From: a virus
Strand: one strand, 5' to 3'
Virus genome (UHGV): UHGV-0185509
DNA length: 26,000 bases
The notes under the pieces were generated by a model. That model was not told where the DNA came from and did no database searches. It was given only the letters and a program-made list of their open reading frames with translations. Position 1 is the first letter of the stretch. Every line of letters begins with the position of its first letter. The position numbers and the translations under genes were made by a program. This document shows, piece by piece, positions 4,421-26,000 of the stretch.

Positions 4421-4565
4421 ATCTGCAACAAACGCGCTTCACACGCGCGACTTCTGAACACAGAACCTTTCAGGATGACCCTTGAGGATGCCGGTTTGGT
4501 GATCGGTGCCTTTCTGTGGGCCGGAATCCTGTGTGACAAGGTTCATCACTAAAAGGTAATCACTG

Positions 4566-5096: not shown

Positions 5097-5282
5097 TTCT
5101 GCTGGTTAATCCAGTTTTGCATTACGGCAGTACCACGAAACAACCCAAGCCAGTAAGTGGGGAAATAACACTGGCAGCCACTGAAAGATGAACCTCCTGC
5201 CTTATGGCAAAAAAGATTCTTTGTGGTGGTGGACTGATGGAAAGACATCCTAATCAAGCAACCACTCCACAGGGTCATAATT

Positions 5283-5663: not shown

Positions 5664-5766
5664 TTATTACAAAAGCCATTCCCTACAGAGTGGCTTTGAT
5701 AATGGCTTATACCCTACACGGGATAACTTAACTGATATCCCTTTTAACGGATAAACGGAGCCAACA

Positions 5767-6009
5767 ATGGCAGAGATTATTCCCATGACTGAAGAACAGA
5801 AATTCCAGCTAGAGATTTACAAACTGGTCATGAACCAGAACGCAGCCGCAGAGGAAGCATTTCAGTTCATTGGCACTGACGAACTGAAGCTTGAGCTATT
5901 CAAAATTCACTTCCAGTCAGGCGGCGCTAATTCAGATATCACGACCCGTACTATCGAAGCGGTGCGTAAATCGAAGGAAGCGTTAGACCTTTTCACTACC
6001 GGAGCATGA
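5767..6009 (+). CDS. small acidic helical protein of unknown function upstream of terminase
   Basis: 80-aa ORF directly upstream of the terminase small subunit, a position occupied by a small ORF in P22 as far as I recall. Confidence 0.45.
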   Translation: MAEIIPMTEEQKFQLEIYKLVMNQNAAAEEAFQFIGTDELKLELFKIHFQSGGANSDITTRTIEAVRKSKEALDLFTTGA

Positions 6010-6038
6010 TGCTCAACCTGAAATAACAACTAAGTGAG

Positions 6039-6533
6039 ATGAATATGGCAGCACCAAAGGGCAACCGATTTTGGGAGGCCCGCAGTAGTCATGGGCGAAA
6101 TCCTAAATTCGAATCGCCTGAGGCGCTGTGGGCTGCTTGTTGTGAATACTTCGAGTGGGTAGAAGCTAACCCGCTATGGGAGATGAAGGCGTTCTCGTAT
6201 CAGGGTGAAGTGATACAAGAGCCTATCGCCAAGATGCGAGCGATGACCATTACCGGCCTCACTCTGTTCATTGATGTGACGCTTGAAACATGGCGCACAT
6301 ATCGCCTGCGAGAAGATTTATCTGAAGTCGTTACGCGAGCAGAACAGGTCATCTACGACCAGAAATTCTCTGGCGCAGCCGCTGACCTTCTCAACGCTAA
6401 CATCATCGCCCGTGATTTGGGCCTCAAAGAGCAGTCGCAAGTTGAAGACGTGACACCTGATAAGGGAGATCGCGATAAGCGGCGCTCTCGTATCAAGGAG
6501 CTATTCAACCGTGGAACTGGACGCGATTCTTGA
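6039..6533 (+). CDS. gp3: terminase small subunit (P22 gp3-type)
   Basis: 164 aa (P22 gp3 is about 162 aa); sits immediately upstream of and overlapping the large terminase. Confidence 0.75.
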
Positions 6534-8010
6534 TAACTTGAGCGACGAAGAGCAAATAGAATTGCTCGAGCTACTCGAAGAAGAAGAGAACTACCGGAAC
6601 ACACACCTGCTATATGAATTTACGCCATACAGCAAACAGCGTGAGTTCATCGACGCCGGGCATGACTATCCAGAGCGATGTTTTATGGCTGGTAACCAGC
6701 TTGGTAAGTCATTTACTGGTGCTGCTGAAGTCGCGTTTCACCTTACCGGGCGTTATCCGGGCACAAAAGGCTATCCTGCTGATGGTAAATATGGCGGGGA
6801 GTGGAAAGGTAAGCGTTTCTATGAGCCTGTTGTCTTCTGGATTGGTGGCGAGACAAACGAGACTGTAACCAAAACGACTCAACGCATCCTGTGCGGTCGT
6901 ATCGAAGAGAATGATGAGCCTGGTTACGGTTCCATACCGAAAGAGGACATCATTAGCTGGAAGAAGTCTCCTTTCTTTCCGAACCTTGTTGATCATCTTC
7001 TGGTTAAGCATCACACGGCTGATGGCGTTGAAGATGGCATTTCAATCTGCTACTTCAAACCATACTCGCAAGGCCGTGCTCGCTGGCAGGGTGACACAAT
7101 CCACGGCGTGTGGTTTGACGAAGAACCACCATATAGCATTTATGGCGAAGGTCTTACCCGTACCAACAAATACGGGCAATTCTCAATTCTGACGTTTACC
7201 CCGCTGATGGGGATGTCTGACGTTGTTACCAAGTTCCTGAAGAATCCCAGCAAGTCGCAGAAAGTGGTCAACATGACCATCTATGACGCTGAGCACTACA
7301 CCGACGAGCAGAAAGAGCAAATCATTGCATCCTATCCCGAGCATGAGAGAGAGGCGCGTGCTCGCGGTATTCCTACGATGGGTAGCGGACGAATCTTCCA
7401 GATACCGGAAGAGACGATTAAGTGTCATCCGTTCGAGTGTCCTGATCACTTCTACGTAATTGGCGGGATGGATTTCGGATGGGATCACCCACAGGCGCAG
7501 GTTCAGCTTTGGTGGGATAAGGATGCAGACACAATCTACGTTTCACGCGTGTGGAAGGCGAAAGAAAAAACAGCCGTTCAGGCGTGGGGAGCTGTTAAAT
7601 CATGGGCGCATAAAGTGCCAACAGCATGGCCTCATGACGGAAACCAGCACGAGAAGGGCGGCGGTGAGCAGCTCAAAGGGCAGTATGCCGACGCTGGTTT
7701 TATGATGTTGCAGGAGCATGCGACATGGCCTGATGGCGGTAACGCTGTGGAGCCTGGCATCACTGAATTGCGCGACATGATGCTCGATGGTCGCTTCAAA
7801 GTATTCAACACCTGTGAGCCATTCTTTGAGGAGTTCCGCCTCTATCACCGTGATGAAAACGGGAAGATCGTCAAGCTTAACGACGACGTGCTATCAGCCG
7901 TTCGCTATGCATACATGATGCGCCGCTTCGCCAAAATGATGCGCGACATCAAAAAACCAAAAGAGAAAAAGATACCAGCCCCAATCAGGCCCATCGCACG
8001 GAGAACTTAA
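6511..8010 (+). CDS. gp2: terminase large subunit (P22 gp2-type)
   Basis: 499 aa, the length of P22 gp2; GTG start at 6511 overlaps the small-subunit 3' end; nuclease-like C-terminal region. Confidence 0.9.
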
Positions 8011-10176
8011 ATGGCCGACGAAAACAGACTCAATTCCATTCTGTGTAAGTTTGACGCAGACTGGATGGCGAGCGATGAAGCCAGAACCGAGGCGACAAAT
8101 GACCTGTATTTTAGCCGAGTGTCGCAATGGGATGACTGGCTATCAAACTACACCACCCTGCAGTATCGCGGACAATTCGATGTTGTCCGCCCGGTTGTCA
8201 GGAAGTTGGTCGCAGAGATGCGCCGGAACCCTATCGACGTTCTCTTCCGACCAAAAGACGGTGCTAATCCTGATGCTGCCGATGTGCTGATGGGGATGTA
8301 TCGTACTGATATGCGCCATAACACGGCAAAAATTGCCGTTAACGTTGGCGTTCGTGAGCAGATAGAGTCCGGCGTTGGTGCATGGCGTCTGGTCACGCAG
8401 TACGAAGACAACGATCCAACAAGCAACAATCAGGTAATCCGACGCCTGCCAATCCATGAGGCCTGCTCACACGTCATATGGGACGCAAACAGCAAGCAGA
8501 TGGATAAGAGCGACGCTAAGCACTGCACGGTGATTAACGCTTTGTCACGCAATGGCTGGAAAGAGTTCGCAGAGGATTACGGTATTGATCCTGACACGCT
8601 GCCATCTTTCCAGAATCCGAACGATACATGGCTGTTTCCGTGGGTATCGAATGATGTCGTCTACGTCGCTGAGTATTACGAGGTCGAAGAGAAGAAAGAG
8701 AAGGTCTTCATCTACCGCGACCCGCTGACAGGTGAGCCGGTCAGCTATTACCAGCAGGATATCAAAGACGTCATCGACGACCTGGCTAATCGTGGATTCA
8801 TTAAGGTAGCAGAGCGCAAGGTGAAGCGTCGGCGTGTGTATAAGTCGATCATCACCTGCACGCAGATACTGAAAGACCGCGAGAAGATAGCTGGAGAGCA
8901 TATCCCAATCGTTCCTGTGTACGGCGAATGGTCATTCGCTGGTGACAAGGAGTGCTACGAAGGAGTGGTAAGGCTGACGAAAGACGGTCAACGCCTTCGT
9001 AACATGATCATGTCGTTCAACGCCGATATCGTTGCCCGTTCACCGAAGAAGAAACCGACCTTCTTCCCTGAGCAAATCGAAGGCTACGAATACATGTACG
9101 GTGGAAATGATGACTATCCGTACTATCTGCAGAACAGGACCGATGAAAACGGTAACGACCTGCCGATTGGTCCAATCTCCTACATGGAAAACCCTGAAGT
9201 GCCGCAAGCCAACGCTTACATGCTTGAGGCTGCCACCAACGCAGTGAAAGAGGTGGCTAGTCTTGGCGTGGATGCGCAGGCGGCAAACTCTCAGGTCGCT
9301 TTCGATACCGTCAATCAACTGAACATGCGGGCAGATCTTGAGACATACGTGTTTCAGGATAACCTGGCTACCGCAATGCGACGTGATGGCGAGATTTATG
9401 CCTCAATGGTCAACGATATTTATGACGTTCCTCGTCATGTAACGCTGACACTTGAAGATGGAAGCGAGAAAGACGTTCAACTCTATGCGCAAGTTGTCGA
9501 TTATCAGTCCGGCAATGTGGTCACACTCAACGACATTCGCGGTCGCTATGAGTGCTATACGGACGTTGGGCCATCCTTCCAGAGCATGAAGGAACAGAAT
9601 CGCGCAGAGATTCAGGAGTTGCTAACCAAGGTTCCGCAAGGTACTCCAGAGTTCCAGATGCTGATGCTGCAATACTTCACGTTGCTTGACGGTAAAGGCG
9701 TCGAGATGATGCGAGAGTACGCGAACAAGCAACTGGTGATGATGGGGCTGAAGAAACCAGAAACACCTGAAGAGATGGAGATGGTGCAGCAGGCACAACA
9801 ACAGCCGCAGCAGCCATCAGCAGAGCAAATTCAGGCGCAGGGTATCCTTCTGCAAGGTCAGGCTGAATTGCTCAAGGCAGAGAACCAACAGGCGCAGATT
9901 CAGGTTGAAGCCGCCAAGGTTGAAGCCCAAAACCAACTCAACGCCGCGAAGATTGCAGAAATCTTCAACAATATGGACCTCGACAAGCAGGCAGAACTGC
10001 GTGAGTACCTCAAGCTCGTAGGTCAATTCCAGCAACAGCGCAGCAAAGATGCTCGTGCTAACGCTGAGCTGCTTCTTAAAGATGCAGACCAGACTCATTC
10101 ACAACGCATGGATTTCGCGAATCTTATGCGTCAAGTTCAAATCCCCTCCGGCGGAGTAGCCGAGACACCTCAATAA
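8011..10176 (+). CDS. gp1: portal protein (P22 gp1-type)
   Basis: 721 aa (P22 portal 725 aa); Gln/Ala-rich helical C-terminus ([18 protein letters not shown]...) typical of the P22 portal barrel; ATG immediately follows the terminase stop. Confidence 0.9.
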
Positions 10177-10189
10177 GAGAGAGTTAATC

Positions 10190-11101
10190 ATGGACCAAAC
10201 CACCGACATTCAGGCTTCTGAAGAATTAACCCTGCCCGGCAATCATGCAGCGGCATCTGCTGATGGCTTAGTTGTCGATAATGCCAACGACAACGCAGGT
10301 CAGGAAGAAGGCTTCGAGATTGTCCTGAAAGACGATGAGAAACCGAAACAAGACCCGGCAACTAATGCTGAATTTGCCCGTCGCCGCATCGAACGCAAAC
10401 GCCAGCGTGAGCTTGAGCAGCAGATGGAAGCGGTTAAGCGTGGAGAGTTGCCGGAGCACCTGCGGGTGAACCCTGAGTTACCAAAACAACCAGACCCTAA
10501 CGATTATCTTTCCGAAGACGCACTGGCTAAGTACGACTATGACCAGAGCCGCGCACTGGCTGCCTTCCAGCAGGCAAACAGTGAATGGCAGATCAAGGCT
10601 ATGGACGCACGAAGCCAGGCTGTCGCCGAGCAGGGTCGCAAAACTCAGGAGTTCACCCAGCAATCAGCGCAATACGTCGAGGCAGCCCGTAAGCACTACG
10701 ACGCAGCGGAAAAGCTCAATATCCCTGACTATCAGGAGAAAGAGGACGCATTCATGCAACTGGTGCCGCCAGCAGTCGGCGCCGACATCATGCGCCTCTT
10801 CCCGGAGAAATCCGCTGCACTCATGTATCACCTTGGTGCTAATCCTGAGAAAACACGCCAGTTGCTGGCGATGGACGGGCAATCCGCGCTGATTGAACTC
10901 ACTCGACTGTCAGAACGTTTAACTCTCAAGCCTCGAGCCAAGCCTGTTTCAGAAGCCCCGTTACCTGATGAACCCATTCAGGGACACGCTGTTGCTGCAA
11001 ATATCTCTGCGATTGAAAAGCAGATGGAAGCGGCAGCAAACAAAGGGGATGTAGAGACATACCGCAAGCTCAAGGCGCAACTGAATAAAGGAATTCGATA
11101 A
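10190..11101 (+). CDS. gp8: scaffolding protein (P22 gp8-type)
   Basis: 303 aa, the length of P22 gp8; charged helical composition; located between portal and coat. Confidence 0.8.
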
Positions 11102-12396
11102 TGGCATTAAATGAAGGTCAACTGGTCACGTATGCTCTGGATGAAATCATCGAAACCGTCCAGAACCTGACGCCAATGGCGTCCAAAGTGACAAAATACA
11201 CCCCTCCGGCAGAATCCATGCAGCGTTCAAGCAACACCGTGTGGATGCCTGTTGAGCAGGAAGCGCCAACCCAGACTGGCTGGGATTTAACTGGCAACGC
11301 AACCGGGATTCTGGAACTCTCCGTGAAATGCAACATGGGCGATCCGGATAACGATTTTTTCGAGCTTCGTGCAGATGACCTGCGTGATGAGCGTTCTTAC
11401 CGTCGCCGCATCCAGGCATCCGCCAAAAAACTGGCGAATAACATTGAGTCAGCGATTGCCAAACAGGCAACTGAAATGGGCTCGCTTGTTGTTCACGATA
11501 CCCGCGCAATTGGTCCATCTACTGGCCTGTCTGGCTGGGATTTTGTGTCTGATGCAGAGCGCCTGATGTTCTCCCGTGAGCTAAACCGCGATATGGGCAT
11601 CAGTTACTTCCTGAACCCTGACGATTACCGCAAAGCAGGCCGCAACCTGGTAGATGGTGACATCTTTGGGCGCGTTCCTGAAGAAGCGTATCGCAACGGT
11701 ACTATTCAGCGTCAGATTGCTGGCTTTGATGAAATTCTTCGCTCACCGAAACTTCCGGCAGTTACCAAGTCAACCGCTACTGGTGTAACTGTGTCTGGTG
11801 CGCAGAAGTTTAAGCCGCAGGCATACACCCTTGATACCGATGGTAACAAAGAGAACGTTGACAACCGTGTTGCAACGGTGACCGTATCCTCCACCACCGG
11901 GTTTAAGCGCGGCGACAAAATCAGCTTCACTGGTGTGAAATTCCTGTCTCAGATGGCGAAGAACGTGCTAACTGATGACGCGACTTTCTCAATCACCCGT
12001 GTGATCGATGGTACTCACATCGAAATCACGCCGAAACCGATTGCACTGGATGACGCGTCACTGACAAAAGAAGAGAAGGCTTACGCTAACGTAAACACCT
12101 CTCTTGCTGATACCACTCCGGTAAACGTTCTGAACGTGGCAACAACCACCGCTAACGTGTTTTGGGCTGATGACTCAATCCGTCTGCTGTCTCAGCCGAT
12201 CCCGGTAACCCATGAACTGTTTGCTGGCATGAAAACGTCTTCCTTCAGCATTCCTGGTATTGGTGTTAACGGCATCTTCGCAACGCAGGGTGATATCAAC
12301 ACTCTGTCTGGTAAGTGCCGTATTGCTGTGTGGTATTCAGCATGTGCTGTACGACCAGAGGCAATTGGTGTTGGTCTGCCTAACCAGACTGCGTGA
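11101..12396 (+). CDS. gp5: major coat protein (P22 gp5-type)
   Basis: 430 aa plus initiator Met; aligns along its length with P22 coat as I recall it (MALNEGQ.VT...DEIIET...[21 protein letters not shown]...GVGLP.QTA). Confidence 0.95.
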
Positions 12397-12404
12397 TAAC
12401 CAGA

Positions 12405-12427
12405 GGGAGCTTCGGCTCCCTTTTTTA
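12405..12427 (+). terminator. strong intrinsic terminator immediately after the coat gene
   Basis: Perfect hairpin GGGAGC-ttcg-GCTCCC followed by TTTTTT (12421-12426), 9 nt after the coat stop. Confidence 0.75.
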
Positions 12428-12440
12428 TCTGGAGACAAGC

Positions 12441-12677
12441 ATGACACACATGATCTTTCGTCATGGAGACATGAAGAAATGGAAAGGCGTTGGATACGAC
12501 TTTGAAATCGTGAAAGCCGAAGAGCTTCAGGAATATCTGGATGCTGGCTGGTTTTCACATCCTGATGACCTTTTGAAGGATGTTGCAGAGCCGGAGCCAG
12601 AGCCAGAAGAAAAACAGCGTAAAAAGCCTGGTCGAAAACCTAAGGCGGCAGCAGATGAACCTGACAACGAAGGGTGA
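12441..12677 (+). CDS. small hypothetical protein between coat and gp4
   Basis: 78-aa ORF from ATG 12441 preceded by GGAGA; acidic PEPEPE linker and basic tail; overlaps the gp4 start by 23 nt in another frame; existence uncertain. Confidence 0.35.
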
Positions 12678-13155
12678 TTTAGTTCTTGCGGCATTACGTA
12701 AGCTCGGTGTGGCATCAAATGCCACGTTAACCGATGTCGAACCGCAGTCTATGGAAGACGGCGTCAACGACCTTGAAATGATGATGGCTGAATGGCTTGG
12801 CGGTGATGCGTCACCTGGGATCAACGTTGGCTACATTTTTGCTGATGCAGATGTCGCTCCAGATCCGGGCGATGAGCACGGCTTATCAAATAACGCTATA
12901 AATGCCGTCATTTTCAACCTTGCCTGCCGCATTGCTCCAGATTATGCGCTGGAAGCGTCTGCAAAACTTATAACCACTGCCAGATACGGGAAAGAGCGAC
13001 TCGTCAAACTGTCTGCAATGGACAGAGCAAAAGCCGCTAAATGTAAGTCCGGTTATCCAAACCGTATGCCTGTTGGTAGTGGTAACCAGTTGGCGAAGTG
13101 GAACGGTTGGAATTACTTCCAGCGAAAGGAACCTTGCGATAACGGGAGCGAATAA
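12655..13155 (+). CDS. gp4: head completion / portal-plug protein (P22 gp4-type)
   Basis: Start placed at internal ATG 12655 to give 166 aa, the P22 gp4 length; [27 protein letters not shown]...[13 protein letters not shown] matches P22 gp4 as I recall it. Confidence 0.85.
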
Positions 13156-14573
13156 TGCCGATTCAGCAACTTCCGCTTATGAAAGGTGTCGGCAAAGACT
13201 TTAGAAACGCTGACTATATCGACTATCTGCCAGTGAATATGTTGGCTACACCCAAAGAAATACTCAACAGCAGCGGATATCTTCGCTCATTCCCGGGCAT
13301 TGCCAAACGTTCTGATGTGAATGGTGTATCGCGCGGCGTCGAGTACAACATGGCGCAGAATGCTGTTTATCGCGTATGTGGTGGCAAGCTGTACAAAGGA
13401 GAAAGCGAGGTCGGTGATGTTGCCGGAAGTGGTCGCGTATCAATGGCGCATGGTCGGACATCACAGGCTGTAGGCGTTAATGGTCAACTGGTCGAATACC
13501 GCTATGATGGCACGGTTAAAACCGTCTCAAACTGGCCTACAGACAGCGGATTCACGCAGTATGAGTTAGGTTCGGTCCGTGACATTACGCGCTTACGTGG
13601 GCGTTATGCGTGGTCAAAAGACGGTACTGATTCATGGTTTATCACTGACCTTGAAGACGAATCGCATCCTGACCGCAACAGCGCACAATATCGTGCCGAG
13701 TCGCAGCCTGACGGAATCATCGGAATCGGAACATGGCGAGACTTCATTGTCTGCTTTGGTTCATCGACGATTGAATATTTCTCCCTGACTGGTGCAACCA
13801 CTGTTGGTGCCGCGTTGTATGTCGCACAGCCATCGCTGATGGTGCAAAAAGGCATCGCCGGAACTTACTGCAAAACGCCGTTTGCTGATTCCTATGCGTT
13901 TATCAGCAATCCGGCAACAGGTGCGCCGTCTGTGTATATCATCGGCTCCGGTCAGGTATCACCAATCGCCAGCGCGAGCATTGAGAAAATACTACGCTCC
14001 TACACTGCTGATGAACTGGCTGATGGCGTGATGGAATCGCTGCGGTTTGATGCGCATGAGTTGCTGATTATCCATCTCCCGCGCCATGTTCTTGTTTACG
14101 ACGCATCTTCAAGCGCTAATGGTCCGCAATGGTGTGTGCTGAAAACAGGCCTGTATGACGATGTGTACCGCGCTATCGACTTCATTTACGAAGGCAATCA
14201 GATAACGTGCGGCGATAAGCTGGAATCTGTTACCGGGAAACTGCAATTCGACATCAGCAGCCAGTACGACAAGCAACAGGAACACCTGCTGTTTACTCCG
14301 TTGTTCAAAGCAGATAACGCCAGAGTTTTCGACCTTGAAGTTGAATCTTCAACTGGCGTTGCGCAGTACGCCGACCGCCTTTTTCTCTCTGCAACAACTG
14401 ACGGCATCAATTACGGACGTGAGCAGATGATTGAGCAGAATGAACCGTTCGTTTACGACAAACGCGTTTTGTGGAAGCGTGTCGGGCGAATCAGGAAAAA
14501 TGTCGGCTTCAAACTTCGCGTTATCACGAAGTCACCTGTAACTCTGTCTGGCGTTCAGATAAGGATTGAGTAA
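13155..14573 (+). CDS. gp10: tail hub protein (P22 gp10-type)
   Basis: 472 aa, the P22 gp10 length; conserved position; ATG overlaps gp4 stop (TAATG) with GGGAG upstream. Confidence 0.85.
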
Positions 14574-15274
14574 TGGCGGATTCATCACTGAATAATCCTG
14601 TCGCGGTTCAGGCTACGCGCCTTGATGCTTCAATTTTGCCACGCAATATATTCAGCCAGTCTTACCTGTTGTATGTCATTAATCAGGGGGCTGATGTCGG
14701 CGCAATTGCCGGGAAGGCAAATCAGGCTGGTCAGGGCGCTTACGATGCCCAGGTAAAAAACGATGAACAGGACGTAGAACTGGCTGATCACGACGCAAGA
14801 ATCACCGCAAACACAAAAGCGATAAATCTCCTTGAGGTCAGGTTAACAACCGCCGAAGGGAAGATAGTCGTACTGCGTAGCGATGTTGATTACTTGCTGG
14901 ATGAGGTTATCGATATTCAGGCGCATTTGGTCACAGTAGATGGAAAACTGCATGGCGTAGAAAACGATGTCTCTGGTATTAAGGCTGATTACGTATCGAA
15001 GTCAGCAACGGATGCGCAATCACTGTCGTCCGCCCTCAACGTGACGACATCATATGCAGTTAACGGAACTCAGGTTGTAGGTTCAAGAAAGACAGGATGG
15101 ACTGCTGCAATAGGAACTCCATATAGGGGTTATTTTAATGCTGACTCTGTAATGCCTGTTGGTGCAACATACAGTCAGTCAGAAGTTCAGGCAATAGCAA
15201 ACAACTTGCAGGTAACTCTAAGGCGTCTAAAAGCCCTTGAGGACGATGTGAGATTACATGGGCTGATTGACTGA
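14573..15274 (+). CDS. gp26: tail needle protein (P22 gp26-type)
   Basis: 233 aa, the P22 gp26 length; central heptad-like helical region; ATG overlaps gp10 stop. Confidence 0.8.
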
Positions 15275-15729
15275 TGATTGCATTCAAACCAACGCGAAAC
15301 ATCGACCTGATAGAAGCAGTCGGAAATCACCCTGACATTATCGCCGGGAGCAATAACGGTGATGGGTACGACTACAAACCTGAATGCCGTTACTTTGAAG
15401 TGAATGTGCACGGGCAGTTCGGCGGCATTGTTTACTATCAGGAGATTCAGCCTCTGACATTCGATTGCCACGCCATGTACCTGCCAGAGGTTCGCGGATT
15501 CAGCAAGGAAATCGGGCTGGCTTTCTGGCGATACATTCTGACTAACACCACCGTTCAGTGCGTCACATCGTTCGCTGCGCGCAAATTCCGCCACGGTCAG
15601 ATGTACTGCGCAATGATTGGCCTTAAGCGTGTAGGAACCATCAAGAAATACTTCAAAGGCGTGGATGACGTGACGTTTTACAGCGCCACACGCGAAGAAC
15701 TAATCGACTTCCTGAATCACGGGAGATAG
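15274..15729 (+). CDS. gp14: head/ejection-associated protein (P22 gp14-type by position)
   Basis: 151-aa ORF in the gp14 position between needle and gp7; start overlaps gp26 stop; assignment mainly by synteny. Confidence 0.6.
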   Translation: MIAFKPTRNIDLIEAVGNHPDIIAGSNNGDGYDYKPECRYFEVNVHGQFGGIVYYQEIQPLTFDCHAMYLPEVRGFSKEIGLAFWRYILTNTTVQCVTSFAARKFRHGQMYCAMIGLKRVGTIKKYFKGVDDVTFYSATREELIDFLNHGR

Positions 15730-15731
15730 CC

Positions 15732-16424
15732 ATGTTATATGCATTTAAGCTGGGCAGAAAACTGCGCGGCGAGGAACCTTATTGCCCTGAAAAAGGCGGA
15801 AAAGGTGGCAGTTCTGATAAAAGTGCAAAGTATGCCGCAGAAGCTCAGAAGTATGCCGCAGACCTGCAAAATCAACAGTGGCAGACGATCATGAAAAACC
15901 TTGCTCCGTTCACGCCGCTTGCGGAGCAGTATGTTAACCAGCTTCAGAACCTTTCCAGTTTAGAAGGACAGGGGCAGGCACTTAATCAGTATTACAACTC
16001 TCAGCAGTATAAAGACTTGGCAGGTCAGGCTCGCTACCAGAATCTTGCTGCTGCGGAGGCGACGGGGGGACTTGGTTCGACAGCCACAAGCAATCAACTG
16101 GCTACGATTGCTCCGACTCTCGGTCAGTCGTGGTTATCAAACCAGATGAGCAACTACAACAATCTGGCAAACATTGGCCTTGGTGCGCTGCAAGGTCAGG
16201 CGAACGCCGGGCAGACATACGCCAACAACATGAGCAGCATTGCACAGCAAAGCGCAGCACTTGCCGCTGCTAATGCCAATAAACCATCAAGTCTTCAGAC
16301 TGCAATTAGCGGTGGCACGTCTGGTGCGATTGCCGGTGCAGGTCTTGCCAGCCTTTTGGGAACATCAACACCTTGGGGCGCTGGCATTGGTGCTGGTATC
16401 GGATTGCTTGGCTCGTTGTTTTAA
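15732..16424 (+). CDS. gp7: ejection (internal virion) protein, P22 gp7-type
   Basis: 230 aa (P22 gp7 229 aa); N-terminus MLYAFKLGRKLRGEEPYCPEKGGKGGSS matches P22 gp7 as I recall it; Gly/Ala-rich C-terminus. Confidence 0.85.
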   Translation: MLYAFKLGRKLRGEEPYCPEKGGKGGSSDKSAKYAAEAQKYAADLQNQQWQTIMKNLAPFTPLAEQYVNQLQNLSSLEGQGQALNQYYNSQQYKDLAGQARYQNLAAAEATGGLGSTATSNQLATIAPTLGQSWLSNQMSNYNNLANIGLGALQGQANAGQTYANNMSSIAQQSAALAAANANKPSSLQTAISGGTSGAIAGAGLASLLGTSTPWGAGIGAGIGLLGSLF

Positions 16425-16433
16425 GGGGTAATC

Positions 16434-17822
16434 ATGGCTACTTGGCAAGGAACAAATGGCGGATTGTTGGCTGGTATCGGCGGCGTCAACTCAAACGCTC
16501 CGAGCGTAAATGACATCGGCAATACGCTTCAGCTTATCAGGCAGAACAATGATATTGAGCGTTCAGGCGCTAACAATGTTGGGCTGACTGCTTTGCAAGG
16601 CCTTTCAGGTATTGCGGGGGTGTTTCAGCAGGAGAAGCAGGCTCAGCGGCAGAAAGAATTTCAGCAGGCGTACGCTAATGCTTATGCGTCTGGTGATCGC
16701 GGTGCTTTGCGTCAGTTGGCTACTCAATATCCAGACCAGATTGAATCCGTTCGTAAAGGCATGGGATTCATTGATGAAGACCAGCGTAATTCTATCGGCA
16801 CCTTAGCGGCTGGCGCACGCCTTGCGTCATCGTCTCCAGAAGCAATGCAATCATGGCTGCAAAACAACGCCAAGGAACTGAATCGCGTCGGTGTTGACCC
16901 TAATAACGTTGCTCAGATGTATCAGCAGAATCCTTCAGGATTTGGTGAGTTTGTTGATCACCTTGGAATGGCTGCTCTTGGTCCGATTGATTACTTCAAT
17001 GTTCAGGACAAGATGGCTGGTCGTGAGATTGATCGCGGAAAACTTGCAGAGACAATCCGCAGCAATCAGGCTGGCGAGGCGCTAACAGCACGAGGCCAGA
17101 ACATCACGATGCGCGGTCAGGACTTATCTGCTTCTACTGCGCGACGAGGTCAGGATTTGGCAATGCAGCGAGCGTCAACAAGAGGAATCGCTGGGAATGA
17201 TGAGCGTACAGTTCAGTTATCAGATGGCAGAACTGTAACGGTAGGCGGGAAGCTTCACGGCGCTGGGGCTAATGCGTTCTACGAAGGCATCGACAACGAG
17301 GGGAATATGGTTCGCGTTCCTGCCAGTTCAATCGCAGCGCCTGCAACATCGTCTGCATCAGCACAAAACTATGCCATGAAGAAGGATATCGACGCGATCG
17401 CAAATGCAGACGCTTCTGCTCTCGATTTCATGACAGGAATGACAGGCGGTGCAGGTAATCCAGCAATTGGTGCTGATGTTCGTAGCCGATTAACAGGAAA
17501 AGAGCAGCGCCAGTTATATAACTCAGCACAACGTATTCAGGGCAGAATGCAGAATCAGGGTGTGGCGGCAGCAAGGGACATGGGTGCCAGTGGTATTAAC
17601 ACCGTTGCAGAAGCGAAGATGTATTTTCAGGGGATGCCGCAGGTTGACTATTCAAGCCCGGAGGCTATGCAGCAGTCGATTCGTGAAATTCAGGAATACA
17701 CCAACAATTACAACCAACAATATAACGTTAATGTTGGTAAATCTCAGCGGAAGCAATCTCAACCTGCACAGGTATCACAGCCAGCAGCCAGCAGTAACTT
17801 TTCTTCACTATGGGGTGATTAA
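16434..17822 (+). CDS. gp20: ejection (internal virion) protein, P22 gp20-type
   Basis: 462 aa (P22 gp20 about 471 aa); conserved position; Gln/Ala-rich low-complexity composition typical of ejection proteins. Confidence 0.75.
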
Positions 17823-20125
17823 TGGCTAAAGCATGGAAAGATGTTATCGCCTCTCCACAGTATCAGGCGTTAGCACCAGAACAAAAAGCGCAGGCTCAGG
17901 AGCAATACTTCAATGAAGTCGTGGCCCCGCAAGCCGGAGAAAATGCAGATCAGGCTAAGCAAGCTTTCTATGATGCCTATCCATTGCCTTCAATGCAGAC
18001 AGAACAGCAGGAAGTAGGGCAATCTCCTGATACCATTCAGCAAGACAAATCACTTATGCAGCGTGCAGGAGAATGGCTAACAGGTGGTCAAAGTGCAGGG
18101 CAAATTGCAGAACAGTCTGGTCGTGGTCTGGTAAACATACCATTTGACGTATTGCAGGGTGGCGCAAGTCTGATTAATGCAATCAGTCAGGGGCTTGGGG
18201 GGCCAAAAGTATTGGATGATGTTTATCGTCCAGTAGACAGACCGACAGACCCCTACGCGCAAGCTGGAGAGTCAATAGGCGGTTATCTTGTTCCTGGAGC
18301 AGGTGTAGCTGGAAACATGGTCATTGGTTCTCTCGCTGACGCGGCGAATCAACGGGGTGATTTTGCCGAAAATGCCGCTATTAATGCCGGACTTAACATT
18401 GCTACGCATGGCCTGATAAATGGCGTTACCCGTGGTGTTCGTGGCGCATCAAATATAATTAGTGGCAATAAAACATCTGCACAGAGAGCGACCACTGCGC
18501 TAACAGAAACATCACCATTCTCCGGTGATGCCGCTGCAGCAACAAATCCTGCGGTTCATGCCGCAGAGGCAAGAGTAGCACAAGGTGTACCAATGACGCC
18601 TGCGACGAGGAACCCAGAGGAAGTCGTTCGCACAGTAGCAGCACAAAAAAGGCCAAATCTCGCTTCATCGCTTGATGAACTAGATATCAATCCTCAGGCT
18701 GAAGTTCTGGAGTCTGCTGAAAGGCTTAATGTTGATTCATTACTCCCTTCACACTTTTCCGGGAACGAGCAATACAAGGCAGTTGAGCAAGCAATCAAGT
18801 CCCGTGCGGGTTCTGCTCTACAGGTGCAGGAAAATGAAGCAATCAGGCAGCTAGCACAGGGCGCGGGGGAGATAATTGATCGCGTTTCCGGTGCAAAAGA
18901 TGCTCTTGGTATGAGCGACAAGTTTATTGATACGGTCAATGGAAGAATGTCTGCGCTGATGAAACGAAGCGACCAGCTTTATCGCAATGTTGAAAAGGCG
19001 ATGCCTGCAGGTGCAAAAATTGATGCGCCATCAACAAGGTCAATGCTCAAACAGGTGGCAGAAGATCTTGGCGGGATGAAAAACCTTGACCCTATTGAAA
19101 AGAGAGTCTTTCGGGCAGTTAATCCAGGCAAGAACGGCGCATTAACTTATGCAAATCTCAATAAGCAACGACGACTTGTTGGTGATGCACTTCATAAGAA
19201 TTCTGGACCATATAAAGATGCTGATCGCGCTGCTTTATCGAGGCTTTACGGTTCGCTCGCCGATGATCAAAAGGCGGCGCTGTCAGAGACAAATGCATTA
19301 CGTGATTTTGAAGTTGCTCAGAGGCTTGTTCAGATGCGAAAAAGCATGGAAGAGCAAATGATTAATCTAACTGGCAGAACGCTGAACGGTGATGTTTCTC
19401 GCAAAGCAACTACAGCACTACAGGCAATGTCGAAAGGCGATGCCAAAGGATTTCGTGAATTGATGCAAAACACGCCGTCCAGGAAGCTAAGAACCGAGCT
19501 ACTGGGAACAGGTCTTCGGGATATGCTTTCGAACGGAAAACGTGGCGCTGATTTTAATCCTGCAGGGTTTGCTGACTGGTATCAAAACATGTTAGCAAAC
19601 GGGCAGATGCGCAATCTTGCCCGACATTTACCAAAAGAGACTATGTCAGGTCTGAACGATGTATATAAGGTCGCAAAGGCTATCAAAGACGCAAAATCTT
19701 ACGAGATAACTACAGGAAGACTAAACGAGTTCGTAAAACGGTTTAATCGCGTCACTGCGGCAAATGAATTTGTTGCTAACCATGCCCAACGCATTGGCAC
19801 TGCGGTTGGTTCAACTGTGTCAGGACCGTTTAGTGCAGTAGGTGCTGTTGCTGGGTCAGAAATTGGGGCAAAAGTCGCCAGCAAAATCAGGGCGATGGGC
19901 GGCGCTGAATCAATTGAATCTGCAGAAAAGCTAATTAGCTCACCAGAATTCCAGAAAGCAGCAAGGCTGGCAGTAAAACAAGCACCAGAAAGCATCGTTG
20001 ATACAACTGTAAGACGCTCTTCTGCTTGGCGCTCGTTTTACAACTCACTTCCAGAATCAGATAAGAAAACCATATCAAGGCTAGGCATCATGTACTGGAT
20101 GAACAGTGATGATAACCAGAAGTAA
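17822..20125 (+). CDS. gp16: ejection (internal virion) protein, P22 gp16-type, unusually long
   Basis: 767-aa ORF in the gp16 position (P22 gp16 about 609 aa from memory); start overlaps gp20 stop; assignment by synteny and composition. Confidence 0.7.
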
Positions 20126-20142
20126 CGGAAAGCCACGGATGG

Positions 20143-20403
20143 TTAGTTGCTGTCTTTTTTATATAAATCTCTGAGCGTATCAAAGACAATTTTCTTTACC
20201 ATATCAGATTGTTGTTCTGCCATACGCTCTGCATCGTCAATGTAAACAGATGCAGAGCTTTGTTTAGCCAATGATTCTTCAATCGCTGCAATTATCTCTG
20301 AGTTCAGCGACCTGTTATTCATCTTCGCACGCTGTTTAATTTTCGCGTGAAGCTCATGCGGAAGTCTCAAGTGAAACTGCGCCTCGTCGTATTTGCTGTA
20401 CAT
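20143..20403 (-). CDS. mnt: Mnt-like ribbon-helix-helix repressor (Arc/Mnt family)
   Basis: C-terminal region (NDAERMAEQQSDMVKKIVFDTLRDLYKK) and N-terminal RHH strand (FHLRLPHELHAKIKQRAKMNNRSLNSEI) match P22 Mnt as I recall it; start placed at the ATG giving 86 aa with an AAGGA Shine-Dalgarno; the ORF track extends it to a TTG at 20487. Confidence 0.8.
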   Translation of the reverse strand: MYSKYDEAQFHLRLPHELHAKIKQRAKMNNRSLNSEIIAAIEESLAKQSSASVYIDDAERMAEQQSDMVKKIVFDTLRDLYKKDSN

Positions 20404-20538
20404 CCTTGATGCCTCACCAAATGGGTGGAATGGCATCGTAAAACCTACTGTACAAATCAACAATAGTACCGTTTCGGTATGTAACAAATGCCAACCGTAG
20501 CCATGCTGCGGCGATTCCTTGTATCTGGAGCAAATTAA

Positions 20539-22401
20539 ATGACAGACATTACAGCCAATGTGATCGTATCAATGCCTTCGCAACTCTTCACTATGGCGCG
20601 TTCTTTTAAAGCCGTAGCCAATGGAAAAATTTATATCGGTAAAATTGACACTGACCCGGTAAATCCTGAAAACCAGATTCCGGTTTATGTAGAGAACGAA
20701 GACGGCTCTCACGTTCCTGTTTCGCAACCAATAATCATTAACGCTGCCGGATATCCGGTATATAATGGACAGATTGCCAAGTTCGTAACTGTGCAAGGCC
20801 ATTCCATGGCTGTATATGATGCGTATGGTTCGCAGCAGTTCTATTTTCCGAATGTGCTGAAGTATGACCCTGACCAGTTTAGACAGGTTATAGAGGGGCC
20901 TGACGGGGCTTACGATGTTGGGTACACAACAGCATTTAATAATAATGAGATAACCGTTGGAGATGCGCTCGATAATAAAATTCCTAACATTATTGGTAAC
21001 GTTGATGTGCCACCAACTGGGTTTATTTTCCATCCATTCACAAGATATAGCGGAGACCATGACTTGCGATATATCAACGGTGGAAACCCCAAATCAATTA
21101 AAAGGCTGAAGAAGACGGGTAATGCCACCGTCACGCTCAACCCTATCACCACTGAGGGTTCCAGCCCTAGCAAGTTAACCGTCGATACAGTAGGGTACGT
21201 TAACCCGGCAAACGCCGACCCCGACGGCACTACATTTCCGGCAGGAATAAAAATTGATGGTGTCACATTTGAAGGGGACGATGCCGGCGGGCAAAGCGGT
21301 TTAACAATACTGCAAGGACACAATTTTCAGATTAAAGAATGCGGATTCTCTAAAACAAAGATTGCGATATGGTTACGTGACGTATGGATGTCGTCGGTAA
21401 GAGACTGTAGTTTGTTCGGACAGTACCTACAAGAGGGTGGAACCAGCATGACTATTGAGAATTGTTATGCGACAGTGCACGACAGCACGGTGACTCCTGG
21501 AGCATTCAGAATTTCAAATCTTCAATACTCATCCATGTCTAGCTGCGCTTCTGATGGCACCGTAAATACAGCGTATTACTTCAACGGTAATAACGGGCTT
21601 AAGGTAACGAGTTGCGGTTCGGAAGTACCAACAGCTCTAGACAAAAACTACGGGACAGCCGCGCATTTCGAAGAAAGTAACGAGATGATACTTGATAATT
21701 TCTACACATTACCTGCTTCGGGTAGCAATATTCTGTTCTCTATAAAAAACAACAACGATCTTGTATTCAATAATACTATGGTTTACGGGGATCCGGCAAA
21801 ATGGAGTCGGGATTTCTGGTTACTTGGTTCCGGGAATAAAGTAGTTGTTAATGGGGGGACTTTTGGGAATACAGGGCGTATCCCGTTGGTGGCAACTAAC
21901 GCTGCTGGTAACACGTTTATCTACAACAGTACTGATGGCAATAGCTACATCGCTAAAACGACTGGCGCGGCTATCACTGTAACCCTTGAACCTAAATTCC
22001 TTAGCAAAACTCTGGATCTTACATCCGATGTGGTCTTTGCAAATAGTGGCCCAGTTACTGGTGGAACCAAGGACATTAAGTTCACTAAGAGTGGTAACAT
22101 TGCTACGGTAGAATTTAATATCACCATCCCTGACATATCTGGCAAAGTAGGTCAACTTTTGATAAATGGCTTACCTTATGCTGCGGCACAGTCTGGTAGC
22201 GGTAGTGTATCTATAGCTTTAGGTCTTGCCACAGGGGTTGGTAATATCACTTGTGTAATACTAAGGGATGACAACCAAATTATGTTTTACAAGTCAACTA
22301 CAACTAGTGGTGTGTCTTCAGCTCTAGGTCCATCTGACTTAATTAATGGGAGTAGTTTAAGGGGGAGCATTACTTACTCCTGCGTGTCTGACTGGGATTA
22401 A
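20539..22401 (+). CDS. gp9: tailspike protein: P22 gp9-type N-terminal head-binding domain fused to a different receptor-binding (beta-helix) body
   Basis: 620 aa; first ~110 aa ([11 protein letters not shown]...[38 protein letters not shown]...[16 protein letters not shown]...NVLKYDPDQ) match the P22 tailspike N-terminus, while the remainder has no resemblance to the P22 body that I can see. Confidence 0.9.
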
Positions 22402-22437: not shown

Positions 22438-22481
22438 CCCCCCCTCATGAAAATTATCTAATTCCCGAGAGGGGGGGGGGG
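22438..22481. repeat. C7...G11 inverted repeat (likely bidirectional terminator) between convergent tailspike and gtrC
   Basis: CCCCCCCTC at 22438-22446 pairs with GAGGGGGGG at 22469-22477, loop about 22 nt; the G run continues to 22481 (11 G), 1 nt from the gtrC stop. Confidence 0.6.
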
Positions 22482-22482
22482 C

Positions 22483-24006
22483 TTATTTGCAACTAATCTT
22501 TCTAAAATCAATGACAAAATACTTGTCATTCACAAATGTATTATACATTTGTCCTTTTGAAACCATTTTCATTTCGCATGGGTTAATCGTATAATTGGCA
22601 TTCTCTATGGGATTCTGTATACCAAACATTTTTATCATACCTTTTCCCCACCATCCATTATTATAGTAAAGAGGAACAACTGAAGAGAGGGAGGGAAATC
22701 TTCTTATAGCATTATCTCTTTGCGGAGATGAAGGTTGCACTCCAAAAAACATGATGGTTTTTGTGGCCTCTGGATCGTTACGTGATATTTCCTCTGCCAT
22801 GATATGCGATAAAAAATAATCAAATTTATTTTGAGCGTCCATAGCACTTCCAAATGCGTATGAGTAGACTAGAAGCGGTAATACGAAAGGTGTTGATAAT
22901 ATGATATGATGCTTAAAGTTTTTAATTAAAGAAAAATAAGATATGCCAACTAATAGCATAAATCCGCTAAACGAAGCCATGACTCTATCTGAGAATACTG
23001 GATATTTTAATAAACATAAATGTATTGCAGCAAATGCCATTATTATTAATGGAGATATCAATAACAAAATAATTATAATTAAATTTAAAAATGATCTTCT
23101 GTTATTGTTAAATATTCCAATGGCTGTCTTTATAATAAATATTGAAACTGTAGCCAAGGAAATTAATGAAAGTAATAGCATGCCATTAACATATAGCAAC
23201 ACCATTGATAAAAATGCCAATGCATTATTTATGAAAATATTAATTCCTTCACGATCAATACTTATTAATGTGGAGTGCTCAATGTTATATTCTCCGAATA
23301 CGAAGTGAGCTGAAATGTTGCTATATATAAAGTATCCAACAAGTAATTGCGCAGCTCTACATAAAATATCTATAATTAGGTCTAGTTGTTTTGTGTATTG
23401 CTTATTAGATGCGTTAATTATGAATTCTATTACTGCCAGACACACAAAAAATCCTATAACAGCCTGGTACAAGCAAAGGGATATAACAACGAAAGAAACT
23501 GAGAAAAACCATTTTAATAATTTTGAACTGTACGATAGGAACGGGAGCAGCATAAGTGACAACGCTGCTATCATTGGTACAACATCGAATTTATAAGATA
23601 AATTTTCAAGCAGAAAAGGGTTTGCAATAATTAGAAAGCATATAACGGCTGAAGCTATGCTATTAAAGTGGTTAAGGTTTGAACGAAAATATAAATATGC
23701 GCATATAATAAAAATTATTATCCCGATAAATAATGTAAGCGGAGAAATGTCAATTGTTGACTCTGCATTCAAGTTAACTAAAGACATTAATAGGTCCGCA
23801 AGAGGTCTTCCATTTGAACTCCATCCAAAATAACCATCCTGTGCTCTTCCAAGATCGTCTATGTAGTATCTATTGGCAATTATTATCGGGATGATATAAA
23901 TAAAACAAAGAGATGATAAATATATTAAAAATAATTTACCTTTTGAGTCCATATGATATTTAATAATTTTATGGCCAGTAATTAATTTGCTCATTGTATA
24001 ATCCAT
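22483..24006 (-). CDS. serotype-specific O-antigen glucosyltransferase (GtrC / Gtr-type family), polytopic membrane protein
   Basis: 507 aa, multiple hydrophobic segments, very AT-rich; sits immediately downstream of gtrA-gtrB in the same orientation, the canonical position of the type-specific gene. Confidence 0.8.
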   Translation of the reverse strand: MDYTMSKLITGHKIIKYHMDSKGKLFLIYLSSLCFIYIIPIIIANRYYIDDLGRAQDGYFGWSSNGRPLADLLMSLVNLNAESTIDISPLTLFIGIIIFIICAYLYFRSNLNHFNSIASAVICFLIIANPFLLENLSYKFDVVPMIAALSLMLLPFLSYSSKLLKWFFSVSFVVISLCLYQAVIGFFVCLAVIEFIINASNKQYTKQLDLIIDILCRAAQLLVGYFIYSNISAHFVFGEYNIEHSTLISIDREGINIFINNALAFLSMVLLYVNGMLLLSLISLATVSIFIIKTAIGIFNNNRRSFLNLIIIILLLISPLIIMAFAAIHLCLLKYPVFSDRVMASFSGFMLLVGISYFSLIKNFKHHIILSTPFVLPLLVYSYAFGSAMDAQNKFDYFLSHIMAEEISRNDPEATKTIMFFGVQPSSPQRDNAIRRFPSLSSVVPLYYNNGWWGKGMIKMFGIQNPIENANYTINPCEMKMVSKGQMYNTFVNDKYFVIDFRKISCK

Positions 24007-24023
24007 GTGATTCCGTAGTTTGT

Positions 24024-24935
24024 CTATTTTTTAATGATATATCTTGGTCTTGATTTAGACTCTATATATATTCTACCTATATACTCACCAAGAACCCCTA
24101 TCCCAATCAGTTGTACACCGCCTAAAAAGAGGATTGATACAAGTAAAGATGGGTATCCACGAACAGAATTACCAAAAATTAGAGTGTCAAAAATCATCCA
24201 TGAGCCATATATAAATGCTAGCCCAGCGACTAATAAACCAATATACGTCCACATGCGAAGAGGGAAGGTCGAGAAGCTCGTGATACCCTCAAGTGCTAGG
24301 TTCCACAATTTCCATCCATTGAATTTAGAGTCACCGGCAACACGTTCTGCCCTCGCGTATTCCACAACATCTGTGCGACCGCCAACCCAACTCAGCACAC
24401 CTTTCATAAAAAGGTTGCGCTCTGGCATAAGCTTAATGTTTTCGACAACTTCACGGCTCATTAACCGGAAATCGCCGACATTCTCCTCGATCTTTGGGTT
24501 GCTTATTTTGTTGTGCAATTTATAAAACCACTCTGCCGTTTTGCGTTTCAGTCGTCCGTCAGTTGAGCGATCAGTTCGCTTAGCCAGCACCATATCAGAG
24601 CCTGCCTGCCACTTTTCGATGAGGTGGGGAATAACCTCAATCGGATCTTGCAGGTCAACATCAATTGGAATTACAGCATCTCCGGTTGCATGGTCTAGCC
24701 CTGCAAACAATGCTGGTTCTTTACCAAAGTTTCGTGTAAATGACAGCGGAACAACCAGCGGGTCTGAAACAGCCAGAGCATTAATAATTGACTCCGTAGC
24801 GTCTTTGCTTCCGTCATTTATGAAAACAATTTCCACTTCATATGGCTTCAACTCTTCGAATTCACGTACCGTTTTATAAAAAATTGGTATCGCTTCTTCT
24901 TCATTGAAGACAGGAACTACAAGAGATATCTTCAT
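24024..24935 (-). CDS. gtrB: bactoprenol glucosyltransferase GtrB (GT2 family)
   Basis: 303 aa; N-terminus ([19 protein letters not shown]...INDGSKD) is a GT2 signature with DxD-like region ([10 protein letters not shown]) and two C-terminal TM helices, as in GtrB. Confidence 0.9.
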
Positions 24936-25294
24936 TTCGTATCCCTAAAGACAATGAACTTTGAATAGACGAAACCGCACACCAGACTGATGGCGGAGAA
25001 GGTGATAAGAGTGATAATTGGAGGAAATGAGCACTTATCAGCAGCCCATCCAACAGTAGCACTCAGTGTTCCCATGAACCCGACATATAACATGTAGCGC
25101 ATCGTTGTAGTCGATGCTTTGAATGTGAATCTTGCATTCGCGAAGAAGCTAAAACTCACAGCCACAACGAAACCTGCGAAGTTTGCAAGAGCTTGATTGG
25201 TATGCGCGCCATAGATACATACACCAAAAACCACCCAGTGTATAAGTGTGTTCAGCACACCAATCGAGGTGTACTTTGCAAATAGCTTTAACAT
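24932..25294 (-). CDS. gtrA: GtrA flippase-like small membrane protein
   Basis: 120 aa, four hydrophobic segments, start motif [20 protein letters not shown]; overlaps the gtrB start by 4 nt; first gene of the three-gene gtr operon. Confidence 0.85.
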
Positions 25295-26000
25295 TTATTT
25301 AATCAATGAGTTCTGAAAGGCATGAAGTCTATCATCCAAGTCTCAATCGATCGATGATTTGCTGTGGTTGTTGAGACAAAACTGAGAAACATAAGTCTTT
25401 GCAATGGCTTTCAAGGCTTTGTGCTATTCGATTGTGGTTGAGGCTGATCACTCCACCTTTTCATCAAGCCAGTCTACCCACCACTGCATCATGTCTCTGC
25501 ATTTATCGTAGTTGATGCATCACTATCACCCTGTAATGGCTTATTACTGGTTTGCAGACAGGTAGGCATGAACAGATACCTGCGCATGAAGATGGAACTA
25601 GTCCGGATGCGATATTTTTGGTGATCACGTACATCATCAACGAAGCGCGTTATGGTGAGTTTTATGACTGCCAAGTAATGTGAAAATTGCGATGCGTACC
25701 AAATTGTGTACCAAATTAAAATCATAAACCATGAAACCCTTACTCATGGCTGTTCTCAGGCTGGGTGCGTGTAATCGTGAAACAAAAAGGTAGATTGTTG
25801 CTTACCGTCATTCATCATTAGGTTAAATCCGTTATTTCTGCTGTATGCCAGAGTACCAAATATCACAACGCTAATCAGCTTTAGAGCGACAATTTGGCAG
25901 CGTGTGGAAACAGATAATGTCAGATTAAAATGAGATAAATGTCACATTTTCTTGCACTTTATTCCAGCCAGTTCATCAGGATTTCCGTAAAAAGAACAGC

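Follow-up and report, generated by a model that had tools for sequence, protein, structure and literature searches.

A gtrABC cassette with an uncharacterised GtrC beside the tailspike gene of a P22-like Escherichia prophage

The gtrABC genes and the end of the prophage

The DNA analysed here, called the window in the following, is the stretch of 26,000 nucleotides of the virus genome UHGV-0185509. It comprises the late region of a P22-like Escherichia prophage together with its right end. From 301 to 20173 the sequence is approximately 95% identical to that of the phages APC_JM3.2 and IME10, and the late region within the window is apparently complete. A contig of the Logan assembly (SRR28288589) and a contig from a JGI metagenome match the window with 100% identity. 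Its right-hand part contains the following genes and sites:

20539-22401, plus strand: tailspike gene (620 aa), with an N-terminal P22 head-binding domain (PF09008, E = 1.5e-66), convergent with gtrC
22483-24006, minus strand: gtrC (507 aa), type-specific glycosyltransferase of the GT-C fold, with a membrane core from about residue 21 to 410 and a C-terminal alpha/beta domain (411-507)
24024-24935, minus strand: gtrB (303 aa), GT2 bactoprenol (undecaprenyl phosphate, Und-P) glucosyltransferase with two C-terminal membrane helices
24932-25294, minus strand: gtrA (120 aa), small four-helix membrane protein, proposed flippase for Und-P-glucose
25771-25782, no strand assigned: attR core GTAATCGTGAAA, marking the right-hand end of the prophage, 477 bp beyond gtrA
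25771-25818, minus strand: displaced original 5′ end of the host gene sbcB (codons 1-16), encoding the original SbcB N-terminus MMNDGKQQSTFLFHDY

To the left, beyond the tailspike gene, there is a gene for a repressor of the Mnt/Arc type.

From the sequence of 22483-25294 the initial annotation had proposed a gtrA-gtrB-gtrC operon for serotype conversion, located as in P22 between the tailspike gene and the presumed attachment-site end. Both proposals were borne out. The three open reading frames are present, the start of gtrB overlapping the stop of gtrA by 4 nt and the stop of gtrB being separated from the start of gtrC by 17 nt. (An alternative ATG of gtrC is at 23994; the RefSeq version of the protein begins at Met5 and has 503 aa.) All three products score above the curated cut-offs of Pfam: GtrA against PF04138 (GtrA; 52 bits, cut-off 26, E = 9e-14), GtrB against PF00535 (GT2; 110 bits, cut-off 23, E = 2e-31) and GtrC against PF14264 (Glucos_trans_II; 82.5 bits, cut-off 30), with residues 41-351 aligned to positions 3-316 of the 317 in the profile. 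The PHROG families agree: GtrA falls into PHROG 2224 (E = 8e-70) and GtrB into PHROG 34335/841, the GtrA-like and GtrB-like O-antigen conversion families, and GtrC into PHROG 4829, GtrC-like O-antigen conversion (E = 1.8e-75, residues 22-506 on 7-485 of 485), which also contains GtrC of P22. In NCBIfam none of GtrC, GtrA and the tailspike is covered by a model.

GtrA is 90-94% identical in amino acid sequence to the proteins from SfV, SfI, SfII, SfIV and Hf4s and 82% identical to that of P22, and GtrB is 92% identical to GtrB of the Shigella phages, 93% to that of Hf4s and 89% to that of P22. The gene order, the common orientation, the combination of conserved GtrA and GtrB with a divergent type gene and the location by the att site of a temperate phage are those of a gtrABC cassette. 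If the glucosylation of O-antigen is taken over from the characterised systems, the operon is very probably a standard phage-borne cassette for lysogenic conversion.

The 12-mer GTAATCGTGAAA is found at both attL and attR in strain EC23HZZ201, where a related prophage is represented by its two ends. Matches to E. coli without the prophage start exactly at 25771, under the gene annotated as sbcB in K-12, and the identity to two E. coli genomes carrying the cassette is 99.6-99.9% up to 25770 and 84% thereafter (approximately 92% without one gap of 20 nt). The replacement N-terminus of SbcB at attL, MTDTDKQPTFLFHDY, comes from the phage. The prophage is integrated in the 5′ end of sbcB. From the attR core together with the drop in identity at 25771 it follows that the attachment-site end is real and that the same cassette occurs in at least two host backgrounds. 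P22 integrates at thrW and differs from the prophage at sbcB also in its integrase module.

For the control of the operon the following elements were recognized, the two promoter hexamers by alignment:

25295-25508, minus strand: conserved gtr promoter/leader region, aligned with P22, SfV, Hf4s and strain c1-17; the homology to Hf4s and to locus L018 ends at 25508
25349-25354, minus strand: predicted −35 element TCGATC, which contains the sole GATC at that spot
25326-25331, minus strand: predicted −10 element TAGACT
22438-22481, minus strand: C11...G7 hairpin immediately 3′ of the stop codon of gtrC, in the gap to the convergent tailspike gene (MFE −28.6 kcal/mol, z = −2.6)

P22 has a Dam/OxyR phase-variation block with four GATC sites, which is missing here. 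Upstream of gtrA, GATC occurs only at 25349, 25446 and 25623; the P22 block with GATC-1 to GATC-3 is absent from this region, and the equivalent of GATC-4 (25349) alone remains. A Dam/OxyR phase-variable promoter, which requires four GATC sites in OxyR half-sites, was therefore rejected. A Salmonella gtr operon with only GATC-4 does not show phase variation (PMC3688519). For the gtr operons of Shigella no phase variation is known, and the Shigella phages likewise have a short promoter region without the P22 block. Because the GATC/OxyR block is missing and the Salmonella operon with GATC-4 only does not vary, we predict that expression is steady rather than phase-variable.

The promoter alignment suggests that the operon is expressed in the lysogen. 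A generic scan for promoters and terminators yielded 10 promoter-like sites where 14.2 were expected, and nothing significant upstream of gtrA. The C11...G7 hairpin is a probable terminator. The length of its C tract differs among carriers; phase variation of the gtrC coding sequence via this homopolymeric tract was rejected, since the tract lies 3′ of the stop codon.

Family and fold of GtrC

The closest characterised homologue of GtrC is GtrC of P22, with 27.7% identity over 481 aa in BLASTP and homology from end to end; the two proteins have the motifs YIDDLGR, GWSxNGRPL, ANPFxxENLSY, LYQA and YNIEHS in common. GtrC of P22 belongs to family I and adds glucose 1-6 to the galactose of the O-antigen, which gives factor O:1 (Davies et al., 2013, PMC3688519). 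Within a Salmonella GtrC family the amino acid identity exceeds 96%, and sequences of separate families can barely be aligned (Davies et al., 2013, PMC3688519). With 27.7% identity against this criterion of more than 96%, the protein is homologous to the O:1 factor enzymes of family I without being a member of the family. It represents a different family, whose specificity presumably differs from that of the P22 enzyme.

BLASTP of GtrC against GtrI, GtrII, GtrIV, GtrV and GtrC of Hf4s gave no match (none of the Shigella enzymes better than E = 0.26), and with no identity recognizable by BLASTP an assignment to the Shigella GtrI, GtrII, GtrIV or GtrV was dismissed. In a profile comparison with HHalign the founder of PF14264, GtrII, was matched with 91% probability, a partial match of just 129 columns. 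A search of 5.8 billion proteins, through which GtrX and GtrIc were covered in place of a direct comparison, found outside the cluster of the gene itself only relatives of at most 44% identity with generic names. Among phages, the protein matches in the collection searched all had less than 60% identity, a value given elsewhere in the analysis as at most 29%; a nucleotide search of gtrC in this collection gave no match.

The nearest relatives in sequence are unnamed PF14264 proteins from E. coli, Salmonella, Enterobacter and Citrobacter (P0002-P0024 in our numbering; 38-44% identity). Three enterobacterial ones that were examined are, like gtrC, of low GC and follow gtrB (gtrA-gtrB in two; in Citrobacter gtrB alone was called), and the one from E. 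coli also adjoins a tailspike gene. They differ in being at most 44% identical and in lying in other genomic contexts, and all are uncharacterised. All close relatives of GtrC are enterobacterial.

The expectation that the protein would not be near-identical to a characterised type-specific Gtr thus proved correct, the best hit being P22 GtrC. Its description as a possibly novel transferase has to be divided. The protein is biochemically uncharacterised; its exact sequence is already public, as WP_032155898.1 and as EQV91193.1 from E. coli KOEGE 71, and is found under generic names also in cryptic-clade Escherichia and in E. marmotae. Any novelty concerns the biochemistry of the protein and not its existence: from its sequence, GtrC is a distinct member of the P22-GtrC-like family of putative GT-C enzymes.

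The predicted topology is that of a protein which spans the membrane several times, in agreement with the initial annotation, which an absence of transmembrane topology would have refuted. AlphaFold2, run on an alignment of 61 homologues, gave a model with a pLDDT of 93.7 and a pTM of 0.92, in which approximately 11-12 membrane helices are followed by the alpha/beta domain of residues 411-507; hydropathy analysis is in accord with this topology. In the alignment G58, R67, P89, D141 and Q181 are invariant, and Y48, D50, D51, R54, W62, G66 and P68 form a near-invariant cluster in the first loop. D50 and D51, which lie 6-7 residues past the helix 21-44, are conserved in at least 90% of the 61 homologues; D86 and D141 are conserved, too. 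A multi-helix membrane core with acidic residues in the first extracytoplasmic loop after TM1 is characteristic of the GT-C fold, whose glycosyltransferases depend on polyprenyl-phosphate sugars, and the conservation of the acidic pair D50/D51 in the first periplasmic loop points to a catalytic role of these residues.

Base composition of the operon

The GC content is 0.438 in gtrA, 0.425 in gtrB and 0.309 in gtrC, where GC3 is 0.276. The low value of gtrC had been noted in the initial annotation as the end of a progressive fall beginning in gtrA; the value was confirmed, and the fall is more a step, which is located at the stop codon of gtrB and coincides with the end of the DNA homology to other gtr operons (24026-24061). 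Also confirmed were the long A/T runs and the skewed codon and residue usage. Runs consisting only of A and T reach 27 nt in gtrC, codons with A or T in the third position amount to 76% as compared with 52% in the late genes, and isoleucine, leucine, phenylalanine, asparagine, lysine and tyrosine together make up 50.5% of GtrC versus 29.9% of the late proteins.

These properties had been interpreted as indicating that gtrC was recently imported from an AT-rich donor, which would also make it unusual among gtr cassettes. The interpretation has in its favour that the GC content of gtrC (0.309) deviates from that of late-region windows of 1524 nt (0.497 +/- 0.016) with z = −11.4 and that the compositional step sits exactly on the homology breakpoint at the gtrB stop. 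However, the same low GC was found in every type-specific gtr gene measured. The values for gtrA, gtrB and gtrC are 0.455, 0.418 and 0.318 in P22 and 0.430, 0.424 and 0.318 in SfII; for P22, SfI, SfII, SfIV and SfV together they range from 0.43 to 0.46 for gtrA, from 0.42 to 0.45 for gtrB and from 0.32 to 0.33 for the type gene, which in the Shigella phages, as here, directly follows gtrB. The gtrC genes of two further E. coli prophages integrated at sbcB have a GC content of 0.345 and 0.321, and homologues of 35-44% identity in Salmonella, E. coli, Citrobacter and Aeromonas have 0.32-0.38. All nine other type-specific genes measured, including those of P22 and four Shigella phages, thus have 0.32-0.38 and follow gtrAB at 0.42-0.46.

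Since the low GC has been kept among homologues of only 35-44% identity in hosts of 50-55% GC, it indicates a maintained composition and is no sign of recency or of an AT-rich donor. In part the AT-richness is due to the amino acid content: the residues I, L, F, N, K and Y account for half of GtrC, which is what one expects of a polytopic membrane protein. Moreover, the breakpoint reflects exchange of cassettes among phages and not an origin in a distant AT-rich taxon, and the close relatives come from enterobacteria throughout. Import from an AT-rich donor is therefore largely refuted and in our opinion quite improbable. As judged from these comparisons, low GC is a long-maintained property of the class of type-specific gtr genes.

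The tailspike-gtrC segment and the proposed acceptor

The prophages at the sbcB site share two conserved flanks, one formed by the head-binding domain of the tailspike, the other by gtrB, gtrA and 214 bp of upstream DNA. They enclose a variable segment of 3.1 kb consisting of the receptor-binding part of the tailspike (from approximately 20886-21024 to 22401) and gtrC; the homology of the window to the other prophages ends at 20879-21023 and restarts at 24031-24061. In other prophages the same slot is filled by unrelated genes annotated as glucosyltransferase, DUF6056 or SGNH hydrolase. GtrC adjoins the same tailspike of 620/621 aa in every context retrieved, the ejection proteins, the immunity region and the integrase being variable; at locus L018 an integrase of the Hf4s type lies directly beside gtrA. 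In strain c1-17 the tailspike gene is 100% identical over 1114 nt. For the receptor-binding part of the tailspike, sequenced phages offer no close relative; the best matches are tail proteins of the phages E20 and vB_Eco_F22 with 43% identity.

P22 is likewise a phage whose tailspike has a head-binding domain and whose genes are arranged in the order tailspike, gtrC-gtrB-gtrA, att, and it shows the same GC pattern across gtrA, gtrB and gtrC. The Shigella phages SfI, SfII, SfIV and SfV share gtrA-gtrB with 85% identity of the DNA and 90-92% of the proteins, but they are not P22-like, and in SfI, SfII and SfV there is no tailspike gene by the gtr genes (the adjacent gene is intact in these three). 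Hf4s (Lederbergvirus) is a P22-like phage of E. coli with the arrangement tailspike, gtrC-gtrB-gtrA and with homology extending upstream to 25508 of the window. Its cluster was experimentally shown to seroconvert and to block the adsorption of Hf4s and of some other coliphages. As an analogue for the presumed function Hf4s is the best available, although its GtrC is an unrelated epsilon34-like protein of 410 aa and its tailspike and integrase differ, too.

In the Gtr model, GtrB makes Und-P-glucose, GtrA flips it and GtrC glucosylates the O-unit in the periplasm (PMC7685785). GtrA and GtrB are approximately 90% identical to the Shigella proteins studied, and the donor pathway can therefore be transferred with confidence. 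In Shigella, GtrA and GtrB are interchangeable. By analogy with the Shigella, P22 and Hf4s systems, transcription in the lysogen would start at a promoter that the operon itself has upstream of gtrA. GtrB, a GT2 enzyme at the cytoplasmic face, would transfer glucose from UDP-glucose to undecaprenyl phosphate, GtrA would move the product to the periplasmic face, and GtrC, with D50/D51 in its first periplasmic loop, would attach the glucose at a single defined site in the repeat unit of the O-antigen. The serology of the cell and its properties as a phage receptor would be altered, the probable outcome being superinfection exclusion in the form of resistance to phages having the neighbouring tailspike. 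To this explanation as a whole, a lysogenic-conversion cassette of a P22-like prophage whose products glucosylate the O-antigen, we assign a probability of roughly 85%.

The acceptor could also be another one in the periplasm, such as ECA, the LPS core, a capsule or a protein, or a change of the O-antigen might not be detectable, as in Salmonella family IV. Salmonella GtrC of families II and IV caused no visible shift of the LPS even under constitutive expression (PMC3688519). A PF14264 protein encoded after gtrAB is therefore no guarantee of O-antigen glucosylation. The family II protein turned out later to be an acyltransferase. Against another acceptor speaks that gtrC is strictly linked to a tailspike of the O-antigen type, both lying in one exchangeable cassette, that the arrangement is that of the proven O-antigen converters P22 and Hf4s, and that GtrC of P22, the closest characterised homologue, glucosylates galactose of the O-antigen. 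We consider another acceptor, or an undetectable change, unlikely and retain O-antigen glucosylation as the probable function.

With respect to the O-type, the two E. coli strains with complete genomes that carry gtrC have identical wzx/wzy genes of the O10 family and apparently represent one lineage; about 15 other O10 genomes are without the gene, which is lacking for example in O10 strains of the CX series and of the NMBU-W12E19 type. One E. marmotae entry is present in both the GtrC cluster and the O10-Wzy cluster, with close accession numbers. In the O10 strain LD39-1 a prophage at the same site has a tailspike that is 53% identical over its full length to that of the window, together with an unrelated, GtrV-like GtrC. 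Among the O-units described in PMC7685785, D-Fuc4NAc occurs in that of O10 alone, where it forms a side branch. O10 as the host O-type and the acceptor of GtrC is only suggested by these findings and is to be taken as a lead. We tentatively put forward, as a possibility with the odds somewhat against it, that GtrC may glucosylate a new position or form a new linkage on an Escherichia O-antigen, possibly the O10 unit, giving an unrecognised O-subtype. GtrC would then be one half of a portable 3.1-kb cassette to "recognise and then mask", the receptor-binding domain of the tailspike being the other, which may be exchanged as a whole among P22-like phages that differ in their integrases.

Of the 20 O-units of E. 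coli that bear glucose as a side branch, 10 have no matching transferase encoded in the O-antigen cluster, and their glucosylation was ascribed to gtr genes elsewhere (PMC7685785). A structure has been assigned to very few gtrC genes of E. coli, and the assignment of this one would add one more entry. It could explain discrepancies in serotyping or phage typing, possibly within O10, and would be relevant to the choice of phages or O-antigen vaccines against carrier strains; the understanding of how gtr systems work would be left unchanged. The interest of the operon, a modest one, is mainly that of an as yet unassigned E. coli O-antigen modification gene travelling with its cognate tailspike.

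The index of the assembly collection lists the GtrC protein in 132 blocks, and the protein occurs in several Escherichia lineages. About 70-130 assemblies contain WP_032155898.1, among them those of KOEGE 71, GCA_903974665.1, SRR28288589 and the E. marmotae isolate. Among 5,426 complete E. coli genomes the carriers were two strains, c1-17 and EC23HZZ201, with at least 99.8% identity. In both the prophage has been broken by IS3 and IS1, and from this one could conclude that the operon has lost its function and is left over from a prophage in decay. Against this stand the full length of the three open reading frames, the conservation of the residues in the catalytic loop and the late region of the window, which is apparently complete. 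Furthermore, between hosts that differ in their flanking DNA by about 8-16% the intact gtrABC frames keep an identity of at least 99.8%, and in c1-17 and EC23HZZ201 adjacent phage genes have been lost while gtrABC is whole. That the operon is a relic is therefore extremely improbable. That the IS elements destroyed the neighbours and left gtrABC intact argues for selection on the side of the host, which the sequences of these decayed prophages suggest.

Integration modules and the sbcB site

The homology of the window to Hf4s, a P22-like seroconverting phage of E. coli, and to L018, a contig carrying the same tailspike-gtr cassette, ends at position 25508 (region 25295-25770), 214 bp upstream of gtrA. 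In L018 (1-1500) gtrA is directly adjoined by an Hf4s-type integrase, whereas the integrase of the window's lineage is sbcB-specific and located at the opposite prophage end. From these two arrangements it follows that phages with two different integration modules carry one and the same tailspike-gtr cassette. In the stretch of phage DNA that separates attR from the gtr promoter region there is a putative open reading frame, which may be spurious:

25489-25725, minus strand, putative ORF of 78 amino acids

The prophage is integrated within the first codons of sbcB (window 25771-25818). There attR retains the host's original sbcB 5' end (16 codons), and at attL a different, phage-supplied SbcB N-terminus (MTDTDKQP...) is present; SbcB in lysogens is therefore a phage-host chimera.

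Among 5,418 complete E. coli genomes, none matches the host flank (25783-26000) at more than about 93.5% identity, and the host of the window may belong to a divergent Escherichia lineage. In such hosts (loci L010 and L012-L017) tmaR is adjoined by an intact microcompartment operon, which encodes BMC, PduV/EutP, Fe-ADH and aldehyde dehydrogenase; beside tmaR of the E. coli O10 strain c1-17 there is only a remnant of this operon.

The tailspike and the decayed carrier prophages

No close relative of the receptor-binding part of the tailspike (20886-22401) was found among 50,697 phage records; phages E20 and vB_Eco_F22 supplied the best matches, tail proteins with 43% identity. A same-site prophage in LD39-1, another O10 strain, has a tailspike 53% identical to that of the window, together with a GtrV-like GtrC that is unrelated to the window's.

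The prophages of c1-17 and EC23HZZ201, both O10, are decayed. In c1-17 (L001, 4254-8000) the tailspike is truncated by an IS3 element and the cassette adjoins a lambdoid tail region (gpJ, Lom and tail fibre); in EC23HZZ201 (L002, 7207-8000) an IS1 lies immediately next to gtrC. In both of the two prophages gtrABC is intact.

The gtrC end and the immI region

Between the convergent gtrC and tailspike genes and in the immI region, respectively, we find:

22438-22481, C homopolymer on the minus strand, hairpin in which the C tract is paired with a G7 tract
20143-20487, minus strand, Arc/Mnt-type repressor gene

In the window the homopolymer, 11 C long, begins 1 base past the gtrC stop codon, outside the coding sequence. 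Its length differs among the carriers: c1-17 and EC23HZZ201 have a T followed by 9 C, KOEGE 71 (a further E. coli carrier) and L018 a T followed by 10 C, and L010 has 13 C. These differences could reflect slippage or assembly error.

Read mechanically from a TTG start, the repressor frame is 114 amino acids long, but on identical or related contigs the gene has been called with a product of 86-97 amino acids; the true start is therefore probably internal to the longer frame.
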